Part shown: positions 27,930 to 31,036 of the stretch, piece by piece
How positions within the stretch are numbered: position 1 is the first letter of the stretch
Layout of the letters: each line of letters starts with the position of its first letter
NCBI RefSeq assembly: GCF_988243305.1
Contig: NZ_OZ547136.1
DNA length: 64,000 nt
Direction: 5' to 3' (one strand)
The notes under the pieces: generated by a model
Told to the model about the DNA's origin: nothing
Seen by the model: the letters and a program-made list of their open reading frames with translations, nothing else
Databases searched by the model: none
Made by a program: the position numbers and the translations under genes

Positions 27930-27975
27930 ATAAAACGATCGATAAAACAGGTATCGATCGTTACCATCGATCGTT
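27930..27975 (+). promoter_or_regulatory. agn43 phase-variation switch: three closely spaced GATC (Dam) sites in the OxyR-binding region upstream of the Ag43 gene
   Basis: aaaacGATCgataaaacaggtatcGATCgttaccatcGATCgtttatag, with GATC at 27937, 27956 and 27969. Confidence 0.75.
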
Positions 27976-28189
27976 TATAGTGGTTAATGGCCTGCGAAAA
28001 GGCAGCTGAATCTCTTCATCATGCAGAACGGAATTGCACACAACGGACTGATACTTCTCTGGCGGATGAGAGAGGGGAAGCATTTATGTCCGGGAAAAAC
28101 CACTTTATCTGACCATGCTGTTTTGTACCTGCCGGTATCCACATTTGTGGGTACCGGCTTTTTTATTCACCCTCTGTAAGGAAAAGCTG

Positions 28190-31036
28190 ATGAAACGACA
28201 TCTGAACACCAGCTACAGGCTGGTATGGAATCACATTACAGGCACCCTGGTGGTGGCTTCCGAACTGGCACGCTCACGGGGAAAAGGCGCCGGTGTGGCG
28301 GTTGCTCTGTCTCTTGCTGCTGTCACGTCAGTCCCGGCACTGGCTGCTGACACGGTTGTACAGGCGGGAGAAACCGTGAACGGCGGAACACTGACAAATC
28401 ATGACAACCAGATTGTCCTCGGTACGGCCAACGGAATGACCATCAGTACCGGGCTGGAGTATGGGCCGGATAACGAGGCCAATACCGGCGGGCAATGGAT
28501 ACAAAATGGCGGTATCGCCAACAACACTACTGTCACCGGTGGTGGTCTTCAGAGAGTGAATGCCGGAGGAAGCGTTTCAGACACGGTTATCAGTGCCGGA
28601 GGCGGACAGAGCCTTCAGGGGCAGGCAGTGAACACCACTCTGAACGGCGGTGAGCAGTGGGTACATGAAGGCGGGATTGCAACGGGTACCGTCATTAATG
28701 AGAAGGGCTGGCAGGCCGTCAAATCCGGTGCAATGGCAACCGACACGGTTGTGAATACCGGCGCGGAAGGAGGACCGGATGCGGAAAATGGTGATACCGG
28801 GCAGACCGTCTACGGAGATGCCGTACGCACCACCATCAATAAAAATGGTCGTCAGATTGTGGCTGCTGAAGGAACGGCAAATACCACTGTGGTTTATGCC
28901 GGCGGCGACCAGACTGTACATGGTCACGCACTGGATACCACGCTGAATGGGGGGTACCAGTATGTGCACAACGGAGGTACAGCATCTGACACTGTTGTTA
29001 ACAGTGACGGCTGGCAGATTATCAAGGAAGGTGGTCTGGCGGATTTCACCACCGTTAACCAGAAAGGTAAACTGCAGGTGAACGCCGGTGGTACAGCCAC
29101 GAATGTCACCCTGACGCAGGGCGGCGCACTGGTCACCAGTACGGCGGCAACCGTCACCGGCAGCAACCGTCTGGGCAATTTCACTGTGGAAAACGGTAAT
29201 GCTGACGGTGTTGTTCTGGAGTCCGGTGGTCGCCTGGATGTACTGGAGGGCCATTCAGCCTGGAAAACACTGGTGGATGACGGCGGTACCCTGGCAGTGT
29301 CTGCCGGTGGTAAGGCAACAGATGTCACCATGACATCCGGTGGTGCCCTGATTGCAGACAGTGGTGCCACTGTTGAGGGGACCAATGCCAGCGGTAAGTT
29401 CAGTATTGATGGCATATCCGGTCAGGCCAGCGGCCTGCTGCTGGAAAATGGCGGCAGCTTTACGGTTAATGCCGGAGGACTGGCCAGCAACACCACTGTC
29501 GGACATCGTGGAACACTGACGCTGGCCGCCGGGGGAAGTCTGAGTGGCAGAACACAGCTCAGTAAAGGCGCCAGTATGGTACTGAATGGTGATGTGGTCA
29601 GTACCGGCGATATTGTTAACGCCGGAGAGATTCGCTTTGATAATCAGACGACACCGGATGCCGCACTGAGCCGTGCTGTTGCAAAAGGCGACTCCCCGGT
29701 AACGTTCCATAAACTGACCACCAGTAACCTCACCGGTCAGGGTGGCACCATCAATATGCGTGTTCGCCTTGATGGCAGCAATGCCTCTGACCAGCTGGTG
29801 ATTAATGGTGGTCAGGCAACCGGCAAAACCTGGCTTGCGTTTACAAATGTCGGAAACAGTAACCTCGGGGTGGCAACCTCCGGACAGGGTATCCGGGTTG
29901 TGGATGCACAGAATGGTGCCACCACAGAAGAAGGTGCGTTTGCCCTGAGTCGCCCGCTTCAGGCCGGCGCCTTTAACTACACCCTGAACCGTGACAGCGA
30001 TGAAGACTGGTACCTGCGCAGTGAAAATGCTTATCGTGCTGAAGTCCCCCTGTATGCCTCCATGCTGACACAGGCAATGGACTATGACCGGATTCTGGCA
30101 GGCTCCCGCAGCCATCAGAGCGGTGTAAGCGGTGAAAATAACAGCGTCCGTCTCAGCATTCAGGGCGGTCATCTCGGGCACGATAACAACGGTGGTATTG
30201 CCCGTGGGGCCACGCCGGAAAGCAACGGCAGCTATGGCTTCGTCCGTCTGGAGGGTGACCTGCTCAGAACAGAGGTTGCCGGTATGTCACTGACGACAGG
30301 AGTGTATGGTGCTGCAGGCCATTCTTCCGTTGATGTTAAGGATGATGACGGCTCCCGCGCCGGCACGGTCCGGGATGATGCCGGCAGCCTGGGCGGATAC
30401 CTGCATCTGGTACACACGTCCTCCGGCCTGTGGGCTGACATTGTGGCACAGGGAACCCGCCACAGCATGAAAGCGTCATCGGACAATAACGACTTCCGCG
30501 CCCGGGGCTGGGGCTGGCTGGGCTCACTGGAAACCGGTCTGCCCTTCAGTATCACTGACAACCTGATGCTGGAGCCACAACTGCAGTACACCTGGCAGGG
30601 ACTCTCCCTGGATGACGGCCAGGATAACGCCGGTTATGTGAAGTTCGGGCATGGCAGTGCACAACATGTGCGTGCCGGCTTCCGTCTGGGCAGCCACAAC
30701 GATATGAACTTTGGTAAAGGCACCTCATCCCGTGACACCCTGCACGACAGTGCAAAACACAGTGTGCGTGAACTGCCGGTGAACTGGTGGGTACAGCCTT
30801 CTGTTATCCGCACCTTCAGCTCCCGGGGAGACATGAGCATGGGTACAGCCGCAGCCGGCAGTAACATGACGTTCTCACCGTCCCGGAATGGCACGTCACT
30901 GGACCTGCAGGCCGGACTGGAAGCCCGTGTCCGGGAAAATATCACCCTGGGCGTTCAGGCCGGTTATGCCCACAGTGTCAGCGGCAGCAGCGCTGAAGGT
31001 TATAACGGTCAGGCCACACTGAACGTGACTTTCTGA
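28190..31036 (+). CDS. flu: Antigen 43 self-associating autotransporter adhesin (948-aa allele)
   Basis: Extended signal peptide MKRHLNTSYRLVWNHITGTLVVASELARSRGKGAG, beta-helix passenger repeats, C-terminal beta-barrel ending ...GQATLNVTF. Confidence 0.9.
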   Translation: MKRHLNTSYRLVWNHITGTLVVASELARSRGKGAGVAVALSLAAVTSVPALAADTVVQAGETVNGGTLTNHDNQIVLGTANGMTISTGLEYGPDNEANTGGQWIQNGGIANNTTVTGGGLQRVNAGGSVSDTVISAGGGQSLQGQAVNTTLNGGEQWVHEGGIATGTVINEKGWQAVKSGAMATDTVVNTGAEGGPDAENGDTGQTVYGDAVRTTINKNGRQIVAAEGTANTTVVYAGGDQTVHGHALDTTLNGGYQYVHNGGTASDTVVNSDGWQIIKEGGLADFTTVNQKGKLQVNAGGTATNVTLTQGGALVTSTAATVTGSNRLGNFTVENGNADGVVLESGGRLDVLEGHSAWKTLVDDGGTLAVSAGGKATDVTMTSGGALIADSGATVEGTNASGKFSIDGISGQASGLLLENGGSFTVNAGGLASNTTVGHRGTLTLAAGGSLSGRTQLSKGASMVLNGDVVSTGDIVNAGEIRFDNQTTPDAALSRAVAKGDSPVTFHKLTTSNLTGQGGTINMRVRLDGSNASDQLVINGGQATGKTWLAFTNVGNSNLGVATSGQGIRVVDAQNGATTEEGAFALSRPLQAGAFNYTLNRDSDEDWYLRSENAYRAEVPLYASMLTQAMDYDRILAGSRSHQSGVSGENNSVRLSIQGGHLGHDNNGGIARGATPESNGSYGFVRLEGDLLRTEVAGMSLTTGVYGAAGHSSVDVKDDDGSRAGTVRDDAGSLGGYLHLVHTSSGLWADIVAQGTRHSMKASSDNNDFRARGWGWLGSLETGLPFSITDNLMLEPQLQYTWQGLSLDDGQDNAGYVKFGHGSAQHVRAGFRLGSHNDMNFGKGTSSRDTLHDSAKHSVRELPVNWWVQPSVIRTFSSRGDMSMGTAAAGSNMTFSPSRNGTSLDLQAGLEARVRENITLGVQAGYAHSVSGSSAEGYNGQATLNVTF

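Follow-up and report, generated by a model that had tools for sequence, protein, structure and literature searches.

A UTI89-type agn43 allele with a predicted Dam/OxyR switch and IsrC leader in a serX-inserted genomic island of Escherichia coli

The locus at positions 27930 to 31036 of the 64-kb stretch of DNA analyzed here (the window) is very probably the agn43 (flu) gene of E. coli, carried by a genomic island inserted at serX. It represents a UTI89-type allele of class C4 (subfamily II), with a Dam/OxyR switch predicted by homology and an IsrC leader. The protein, its structure and class, the leader RNA, and the architecture of the switch have all been described already; the value for annotation lies in placing a UTI89-type C4 Ag43 allele within an aerobactin island at serX.

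Identity and domains of the 948-residue protein

The coding sequence and the predicted parts of its product are as follows.

28190..31036, + strand: agn43 coding sequence, 948 aa plus stop, identical to WP_000820443.1 of the Ag43/Cah family (UTI89-type, class C4)
28190..28345, + strand: extended (ESPR) signal peptide, residues 1 to 52 (Pfam PF13018 on residues 6 to 52)
28346..30028, + strand: passenger beta-helix and autochaperone, residues 53 to 613 (identity to 7KO9; Pfam AIDA repeats and AC_1)
30029..31033, + strand: linker and beta-barrel translocator, residues 614 to 948, with C terminus NVTF (Pfam PF03797 on residues 673 to 842)

The open reading frame (ORF) begins with the ATG at 28190, ends with the stop codon at 31034 to 31036, and encodes 948 aa. 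Its product matches the NCBIfam equivalog NF033177 (auto_Ag43) at 1982 bits (cutoff, 1200), with residues 1 to 948 on positions 1 to 948 of a 948-position profile. Passenger residues 52 to 613 are 100% identical to chain A of PDB 7KO9, the Ag43 of uropathogenic UTI89 (UTI89_C1139), which has been assigned to class C4 (PMC8993888). The identical full-length protein is present on 966 public contigs, and roughly 3300 genomes contain the locus. Over the 3.3 kb from 27800 to 31100, regulatory region included, the locus has 100% nucleotide identity to strain NU14, where WP_000820443.1 is annotated as an "Ag43/Cah family autotransporter adhesin." Starting from another in-frame ATG, at 28115, the product would have 973 aa; this codon precedes the leader terminator and lacks a Shine-Dalgarno sequence. 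MKRHLNT, encoded from 28190, is the start of every annotated homolog.

Alignment predicts an alpha domain of 430 aa (residues 53 to 482), and AC_1 covers residues 488 to 599. The AIDA repeats match Pfam PF16168 in five stretches and the autochaperone matches PF18883, while the barrel is matched locally, over profile positions 16 to 188 of 255. The C terminus, NVTF, is the same as that of K-12 and ends in an aromatic residue. Together, the ESPR, AIDA-repeat passenger, autochaperone, and C-terminal beta-barrel show the predicted product to be a complete classical (type Va) autotransporter. Published Ag43-UTI89 constructs span residues 53 to 482 and 53 to 613, the first residue of the 7KO9 construct being 52-53, and the 7KO9 passenger is an L-shaped three-stranded beta-helix (PMC8993888). 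Expressed from a plasmid (pBAD), Ag43-UTI89 can be released from the cell surface by heat and promotes aggregation, although aggregation and biofilm formation are slower than with the EDL933 or CFT073 Ag43a variants (PMC8993888).

Length of the protein relative to K-12 Flu

K-12 Flu (b2000, class C1), the product of the reference Dam/OxyR phase-variable gene, is 82% identical at the protein level and has the ESPR signal peptide, beta-helix stem, autochaperone, and barrel in common with the protein described here. The first-pass annotation had remarked that 948 aa is shorter than the 1039 aa of K-12, and pairwise alignment bears this out, with a net difference of 91 aa, small indels included. 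The larger insertions of K-12 fall in a single zone.

29602..29696, + strand: zone of extra in-frame K-12 blocks, with 72 aa after residue 471, 8 aa after residue 487, and 16 aa after residue 502

All of these blocks sit in the bottom of the L, the lower beta-helix of the passenger, and only across residues 471 to 503. Up to about residue 330 the sequence hardly differs from K-12, and it diverges thereafter. The N terminus and everything from residue 503 to the C terminus, a stretch of 446 residues, contain no alignment gaps, and the barrel is highly identical. The Asp-Pro alpha/beta processing site of K-12 is not conserved; the aligned position here is Arg482-Phe483.

A shortfall of 91 aa, combined with the partial Pfam match to the barrel, could mean that the ORF derives from that of the 1039-aa protein by truncation or decay and no longer encodes a working adhesin. 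We consider this next to impossible. The gaps are in-frame and internal to the passenger, and nothing is missing from the signal peptide, autochaperone, or barrel; the protein is therefore not a truncation. It also matches the 948-position equivalog over its full length, the same passenger is known to fold (PDB 7KO9), and the UTI89 protein aggregates cells (PMC8993888). The alignment with K-12 that the first-pass annotation had proposed as a check on length therefore leaves both passenger and barrel in place, and the truncation reading fails.

As read from the alignment, the shortfall instead means that the bottom arm is built from fewer beta-helix rungs, which is a standing polymorphism within the family and not decay. 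Passengers of classes C2 and C4 (subfamily II) measure ~430 aa versus ~500 aa (PMC6668479). The C4 architecture fits this allele, with a C1-like stem (SL1), a C2-like elbow and bottom arm, and the 430-aa predicted alpha domain. Cah of enterohemorrhagic E. coli O157:H7 EDL933 (Z1211; PDB 7KOH; class C2) shares the short architecture (949 aa) as well as the type of regulatory region and leader; it barely differs from the protein here in signal peptide, autochaperone, and barrel, whereas its passenger has diverged (dN 0.16, dS 0.48). Cah reportedly aggregates faster than Ag43-UTI89 (PMC8993888). The short length is no oddity of this allele: 948 is the standard length of the family model NF033177 and belongs to the known C2/C4 architecture. 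Annotators should not read it as a sign of decay.

The serX island and the age of its lesions

The following features define the surroundings of agn43.

20633..21942, - strand: IS629/IS3411-type element of 1310 bp inserted in iucD (by comparison with CH4796), with orfA and orfB intact and a TAAC duplication
26945..27817, + strand: GTPase-family gene (YeeP-like), the conserved left neighbor of agn43 (from annotations of identical DNA in NU14 and CH4796)
31057..31093, + strand: terminator-like hairpin (12 bp, 9 G-C pairs) with a T-rich tail, 20 nt past the agn43 stop
37069..37156, - strand: tRNA-Ser (serX), the right island boundary (annotation and Rfam tRNA match)

Left of agn43 stand an ibrAB-like module and the aerobactin genes iucABCD-iutA, and the island holds fragments of IS600, IS1F, IS3, IS66, and an integrase. 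The element that splits iucD, which we take to be IS629 from its terminal repeats, contains an ALIL frameshift pseudoknot at 21491-21607 (Rfam, 120 bits). The disrupted siderophore operon and multiple insertion sequence fragments of the first-pass annotation were thus correctly recognized. Its broader statement, that the other adhesion and iron functions of the island are decaying, holds for iron, where aerobactin iucD is broken, but not for adhesion, as the island has no other adhesin gene. We found no decaying adhesin gene in the window, and what comes closest to one is the ibrB-like gene, which a nonsense codon interrupts; IbrB is a regulator of adhesins.

Compared with CH4796, the 37-kb island is 99.98% identical, differing by four point differences and the insertion sequence. 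NU14 aligns only from 26850 to 64000, at 98.85%, with a breakpoint at ~26850; the right arm (27-37 kb) has 1 mismatch to it in 10 kb. All 12 other right-arm genes in the window are intact. Past serX, divergence from both strains leaps from ~0 to 1-2.7%. NU14 has a serX island with the same right arm and differs in context only, its left part consisting of sfa and iro where the ibrAB-like module and iucABCD-iutA stand here. A context of the NU14 kind, with sfa/iro and an intact siderophore operon, was ruled out, the left part being the aerobactin island as in CH4796. The same configuration was not found among the complete E. coli genomes in the collection, in which the best core match was 99.4%.

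Ag43a and Ag43b of CFT073 (c3655 and c1273; PDB 4KH3 and 7KOB; class C3) belong to the same family and form L-shaped beta-helices that self-associate head to tail (PMC8993888). The agn43b gene occupies the same serX island position and adjoins the same GTPase gene, but it encodes 1039 aa and has a K-12-type regulatory region, unlike the allele here. In CFT073, agn43b is followed by yeeR-irmA in one operon (PMC4807369), whereas yeeR-irmA is absent downstream of agn43 in the window and a terminator-like hairpin follows the gene.

Retention of an intact adhesin gene among disrupted neighbors had been put forward as a sign of continued selection on agn43. Intactness cannot show this, because the island is recent and every other right-arm gene is intact too, and the argument from selection is weak. 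The near-identity of the island to that of CH4796, next to core sequence 1-2.7% apart, indicates that the island was shared recently and that the insertion and nonsense lesions are very young. We lean toward the explanation that agn43 is intact since the island came recently, the gene being as young here as the lesions around it, and not through selection in this lineage. The few differences from CH4796, of which the insertion sequence is itself intact, the single mismatch to NU14 beside a diverged flanking core, and the 12 other intact right-arm genes all favor recent arrival. On the other side, the Ag43/Cah family is under purifying selection (dN/dS 0.1-0.4), and the wide distribution of the exact protein makes selection elsewhere likely. 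By these ratios, purifying selection is visible at the family level only.

Promoter, OxyR-like sites, and leader RNA

The regulatory features upstream of the ORF are listed in order of position.

27903..27908, + strand: putative -35 hexamer TTGCGT, 17-nt spacer to the -10, read from the sequence and unchanged across the 7 alleles that have this regulatory type
27925..27939, + strand: OxyR-like half-site A, ATAGAATAAAACGAT, 8/10 consensus, overlapping the -10 and GATC-I
27926..27931, + strand: -10 hexamer TAGAAT, present in K-12, CFT073 agn43b, and alleles of this type (AAGAAT in ECAMP047)
27935..28171, + strand: agn43 leader RNA, equivalent to IsrC/Rfam IS102 (RF00124, 72.5 bits versus gathering cutoff 46, model positions 1-206 of 206)
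27937..27972, + strand: Dam sites GATC-I (27937-27940), GATC-II (27956-27959), and GATC-III (27969-27972), spaced 19/13 bp
27957..27971, + strand: OxyR-like half-site C, ATCGTTACCATCGAT, 8/10 consensus, spanning GATC-II and GATC-III, 8/10 in all alleles
28131..28164, + strand: leader terminator, a 12-bp hairpin (28131-28158) plus T6, near-identical in K-12 and alleles of this type
28178..28182, + strand: Shine-Dalgarno sequence AAGGA, 7 nt before the ATG, invariant across alleles

The -35 hexamer fits only three of the six consensus bases, which is why a simple sigma-70 scan missed the promoter, and the sequence of the 17-nt spacer varies among the seven alleles. The first GATC lies 6 nt past the -10 hexamer. 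When alleles were anchored on their GATCs without gaps, the 19/13-bp spacing recurred in 10 of 10 (the window, K-12, CFT073 agn43b, and seven other agn43/cah alleles); gaps placed by MAFFT had masked the equal spacing. Three GATCs within 36 bp are not beyond chance alone, as the 64-kb window has three more such clusters (one at 49809-49827 and two overlapping at 54087-54146). GATC is also rarer than expected over the whole window (169 sites versus ~239). It is the position and register of the triad, not its clustering, that exceed chance. The placement of three GATC sites at 27937, 27956, and 27969, as expected upstream of the ORF, is confirmed.

This regulatory type accounts for 7 of the 10 alleles sampled, and among these seven the sequence from the -10 to ~+50 is invariant save for 3-4 columns between GATC-II and GATC-III. 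Half-sites A and C are 32 bp apart, and matches of at least 8/10 have a background of ~0.0004 per position. Half-site A has the same sequence in six of the seven alleles scored and a 7/10 match in ECAMP047. Promoters of this type have a degenerate half-site between GATC-I and GATC-II, and the middle element differs between the two regulatory types. The switch called intact in the first-pass annotation is a predicted one: the GATCs and two OxyR-like half-sites are conserved, but the classical 37-bp OxyR register scores 10/20 here versus 14/20 in K-12 and CFT073 agn43b. Shifted by -10, the register scores 13/20.

From the homology with K-12 agn43 we infer Dam/OxyR switching of the locus. Transcription would start at ~27935-27938, a few nucleotides past the -10 box. 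OxyR bound to unmethylated DNA over the -10/+1 region and the three GATCs would block transcription, giving the OFF state. If Dam methylated the GATCs after replication before OxyR could rebind, OxyR would be excluded and the gene would be ON, and this competition between Dam and OxyR would produce heritable phase variation. Neither dam nor oxyR lies within the 64-kb window. OxyR derepression has been reported for CFT073, EC958, and 83972 (PMC4807369). The CFT073 agn43b gene has a K-12-type regulatory region, and in EC958 transcription starts 228 nt ahead of the ATG (PMC4807369), which is closer to the K-12 type than to the 258-nt type found here. For UTI89-/cah-type promoters, our literature search turned up no demonstration of Dam/OxyR switching, methylome, or phase variation.

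It is conceivable, though we think it unlikely, that the GATC triad has been kept while the switch differs from that of K-12 through the one diverged OxyR half-site, making it ON-biased, OFF-biased, or locked; OxyR might then use a shifted or extended register with the half-sites at 27925-27939 and 27957-27971. The low score in the classical register, the higher one in the shifted register, and the retention of two half-sites in all alleles around a middle element that varies between types speak for such a difference. Near-invariance from the -10 to +50 in so common a type instead argues for a working, constrained element. Furthermore, OxyR sites are degenerate, so consensus counts are a poor guide to affinity. 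As a smaller possibility, the non-K-12 regulatory type, which was sampled more often, may bind OxyR through two half-sites 32 bp apart and not through the classical 37-bp site.

The leader may add a second layer of control. The gene flu has been reported to be under IsrC antitermination control (PMC5389530). Here, the Rfam IS102 match opens 4 nt past the -10, and the leader runs ~255-258 nt up to the ORF. Its terminator hairpin ends ~20 nt short of the ribosome-binding site, and from that position part of transcription would stop ahead of the ORF. K-12 has the -10, the three GATCs at 19/13, the leader terminator, and the Shine-Dalgarno sequence in common with this locus. Its leader, however, is 227 nt versus 258 nt here, with a diverged central part despite the conserved terminator.

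A separate observation concerns the distribution of GATC around the triad: no further site occurs within 1.8 kb on the upstream side or 3.1 kb on the downstream side. The agn43 ORF lacks GATC altogether in 9 of 10 diverged alleles, where 6-9 are expected from protein and codon usage. The ORFs of the whole module, GTPase gene through DUF957 gene, are likewise free of GATC, and GATCs are left only in intergenic spots. The idea of a GATC-free ORF as specific to agn43 and universal is weakened by this module-wide pattern and by CFT073 agn43b, which has two GATCs in the ORF and one in the leader. Selection may have kept the zone free of GATC to insulate the switch, holding sliding Dam and SeqA assemblies away from the regulatory triad and leaving OxyR able to compete for it after replication, but we hold this to be quite doubtful. 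Avoidance of GATC across the module and the pair of conserved half-sites around a variable middle could offer leads on how the epigenetic switch is tuned.

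The agn43 allele and its length

The agn43 (flu) open reading frame (ORF) extends from an ATG at 28190 to a stop codon at 31034-31036 and encodes a product of 948 aa. This ATG is preceded 7 nt upstream by AAGGA, and the N-terminus that it opens, MKRHLNT, is that of all annotated homologues. An in-frame ATG at 28115, used by an ORF finder for a 973-aa product, was rejected, as it sits 5' of the leader terminator hairpin and lacks a ribosome-binding site. The whole protein scores 1982 bits against the NCBI Ag43/Cah equivalog NF033177 (cutoff 1200), matching positions 1-948 of the 948-position profile, and its Pfam domains are an ESPR signal peptide, five stretches of AIDA repeat, a type 1 autochaperone domain, and an autotransporter barrel. 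Over residues 52-613 the protein shows 100% identity to PDB 7KO9, the Ag43 passenger and autochaperone of uropathogenic UTI89 (UTI89_C1139), which belongs to phylogenetic class C4 (PMC8993888). The 3.3-kb locus is likewise 100% identical to that of strain NU14, where the product is annotated as "Ag43/Cah family autotransporter adhesin" (WP_000820443.1). The exact protein was recorded on 966 public contigs, and the 90% cluster to which it belongs counts 26,437 members. The sequence, structure, and class of this agn43 are already known, as is its regulatory architecture.

Pairwise alignment with Flu of K-12 (1039 aa; 82% identical) bears out the length difference noted in the first-pass annotation. 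Three in-frame blocks of K-12, of 72, 8, and 16 aa, have no counterpart in the window protein; they would fall after residues 471, 487, and 502, respectively. A few 1-3-aa indels bring the net deficit to 91 aa. All of these differences map low in the passenger beta-helix; large gaps are absent over the first ~330 residues and again between residue 503 and the NVTF at the C-terminus. Because the gaps are internal, in frame, and confined to the passenger while the rest of the protein aligns, the short length is not a truncation that removes the passenger or the barrel. Short passengers (~430 aa versus ~500 aa) characterize classes C2 and C4, which used to be called subfamily II (PMC6668479); the alleles of strains 536 and Nissle 1917 also encode 948 aa, and O157 Cah has 949 aa. 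When expressed from a plasmid, Ag43-UTI89 is surface-displayed and heat-releasable, and the aggregation and biofilm formation that it causes are slower than with Ag43a or Cah (PMC8993888).

The regulatory region and the putative OxyR switch

Regulatory features of agn43
27903-27908, plus strand: putative -35 hexamer TTGCGT, with a 17-nt spacer to the -10 hexamer
27926-27931, plus strand: -10 hexamer TAGAAT
27937, 27956, and 27969, plus strand: GATC triad (Dam sites GATC-I, GATC-II, and GATC-III), read in the sequence
28131-28158, plus strand: hairpin of the leader terminator (12 bp, G+C-rich, followed by T6), ~20 nt before the Shine-Dalgarno sequence
31057-31083, plus strand: strong terminator-like hairpin just past the agn43 stop codon

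The three GATCs are present where they had been reported. A GATC cluster within 36 bp is unremarkable alone: three other clusters of at least three sites per 36 bp occur in the window, across which GATC is scarce (169 sites observed versus ~239 expected). Core-genome clusters are found at 49809-49827 (three sites 9 bp apart, mdoG region) and 54087-54146 (four within 60 bp, ~54.1 kb). The first GATC of the triad lies 6 nt past the -10 hexamer, and K-12, CFT073 agn43b, and seven more agn43/cah alleles share its 19/13-bp spacing; the register of the triad, in position and spacing, is not due to chance. A match to the Rfam family IS102 (IsrC sRNA) spans the full model at 27935-28171 (72.5 bits versus a gathering score of 46), this "sRNA" being the leader of agn43. 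Antitermination of IsrC has been reported to control flu expression (PMC5389530).

The ten alleles compared fall into two regulatory/leader types, measured from the -10 to the ATG: a K-12-like type of ~227 nt (K-12, ECAMP047, and CFT073 agn43b) and a 258-nt type (the window, 536, Nissle, O157 cah, DS566-2, 2011C_4037, and 23CRST030). Their central parts are very different (window 27973-28130 versus K-12 L003 1381-1507), and the 5' switch region and the 3' terminator/Shine-Dalgarno block are kept in both. Among the seven window-type alleles, the promoter spacer varies, the stretch from the -10 to ~+50 changes at just 3-4 columns, all between GATC-II and GATC-III, and a single loop base is the sole change in the terminator and Shine-Dalgarno block. 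The 258-nt type precedes long (1039-aa) and short (948/949-aa) proteins alike, so that regulatory region and passenger recombine independently of each other.

In the classical 37-bp register, the match to the OxyR consensus is 14/20 in K-12 and CFT073 agn43b versus 10/20 in the window type, the difference residing in the element that separates GATC-I from GATC-II. The element between the half-sites completes the classical site in K-12 and is degenerate in the more often sampled non-K-12 type. We also searched seven alleles for OxyR-like 15-bp half-sites scored out of 10, for which matches of at least 8/10 have a background of ~4 per 10,000 positions. One half-site, ATAGAATAAAACGAT (27925-27939, 8/10), overlaps the -10 and GATC-I and keeps one sequence in six of the seven alleles, with a 7/10 match in the seventh, ECAMP047; the other, ATCGTTnnnATCGAT (27957-27971), spans GATC-II and GATC-III and reaches 8/10 in all of the alleles. 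The distance between the two is 32 bp, and relative to GATC-I they are at -12 and +20. We infer that these constrained half-sites would be the ones contacted by OxyR and that the switch works. OxyR derepression has been shown in CFT073, EC958, and 83972 (PMC4807369), of which at least CFT073 agn43b carries the K-12-type region; a literature search found no direct test of switching at a window-type regulatory region.

The proposed mechanism draws mostly on homology with K-12. In the OFF state, OxyR bound to unmethylated DNA over the -10/+1 and the GATCs would block RNA polymerase; in the ON state, Dam methylation of the GATCs would keep OxyR off; and the winner of this competition after replication would be inherited. 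The leader terminator would attenuate transcription. Over 31037-31366, the stop codon of agn43 is followed by the hairpin and then immediately by the DUF932 gene. In CFT073 and EC958, agn43 shares an operon with yeeR-irmA (PMC4807369); these genes are missing here, as is the DUF905 gene found in 536 and Nissle. Given the hairpin and the absence of yeeR-irmA, agn43 is probably monocistronic here.

GATC avoidance in and around agn43

The agn43 ORF contains no GATC in nine of ten alleles (the window and eight others), the exception being CFT073 agn43b, with two in the ORF and one in the leader. Synonymous-codon shuffles predict 6-9 per ORF and yield zero in at most 5 of 10,000 cases, and of all 4-mers in the ORF, GATC falls furthest below expectation. 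The avoidance extends beyond agn43 and is not specific to it. ORFs from the GTPase gene (26945) through the DUF957 gene (35984) contain none versus ~23 expected from shuffles, and all GATCs within 26134-36346 are intergenic (the triad; 31096, 31171, and 31213; and 34485, 4 nt before cbeA). The POTRA, AAA, and ibrA-like genes are depleted as well; iuc/iutA and core genes are not. Counter-selection against GATC has long been known in enterobacterial phages and mobile elements, and the simplest reading is that the avoidance is of this type; insulation of the switch is a possible, putative role.

Island content, recency, and selection

Island content, in order
First: IS600 and IS1F fragments, POTRA-domain gene, AAA-domain gene, ibrA/ibrB-like genes, perC, IS3 fragment, MFS transporter
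Then: iucABCD-iutA (with an IS629/IS3411-type element, 1310 bp, at 20633-21942, minus strand, ~336 nt into iucD), IS66 and integrase fragments, GTPase gene, agn43
Then: CP4-44-like module (DUF932, antirestriction, RadC-like, cbeA/cbtA, and others)
37069-37156: tRNA-Ser gene serX, the island end, with ghrA and csg genes beyond

As the first-pass annotation stated, a siderophore operon is disrupted, iucD being split by an IS, and the island contains pieces of several ISs (IS600, IS1F, IS3, and IS66). Decay of other adhesion functions is not evident, because the island has no other adhesin gene. Both orfA and orfB are intact in the iucD element, presumably an IS629 from its terminal repeats; it also has an ALIL frameshift pseudoknot (21491-21607) and is flanked by a TAAC target duplication. 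The insertion is absent from CH4796 and occurs in no complete Escherichia coli genome of the collection. A TAA at 11281-11283 (A-to-T versus strain CH4796) cuts the ibrB-like gene (10825-11463) to 152 aa versus 212. The run at 7602-7609 is A8 here versus A7 in CH4796, so the 893-aa AAA-domain ORF (6426-9107) is intact in the window; the CH4796 gene is annotated as frameshifted.

Across its 37 kb, the island departs from the CH4796 copy at four positions and, over 27-37 kb, from NU14 at one position (10 kb). The window is not NU14 DNA: the NU14 alignment covers only 26850-64000, and the left part of the window matches the island in CH4796. In place of this aerobactin-bearing left part, NU14 has sfa/iro; the breakpoint lies near 26850. 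The right arm including agn43 (26850-37156) is near-identical in the window, NU14, and CH4796. Just beyond serX, divergence from NU14 and CH4796 climbs to 1-2.7%, so unrelated chromosomes have recently exchanged the island or its right arm. This pattern indicates a mosaic island recently shared through horizontal transfer, and the IS and nonsense lesions are of even later date. The earlier observation stands, and its reading finds support in part. Continued selection on agn43 had been proposed; intactness in such young DNA tells nothing of how selection acts in this lineage. Against eight other alleles, dN/dS is 0.06-0.43 in every domain, which is ordinary purifying selection at the level of the agn43 family.

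Other Rfam matches above gathering score are a second ALIL pseudoknot in an IS3 fragment (13990-14106) and the ES056 and ES036 sRNAs and PyrC leader at 42757-42848, 52943-52985, and 62116-62165, all of which are ordinary E. coli features.
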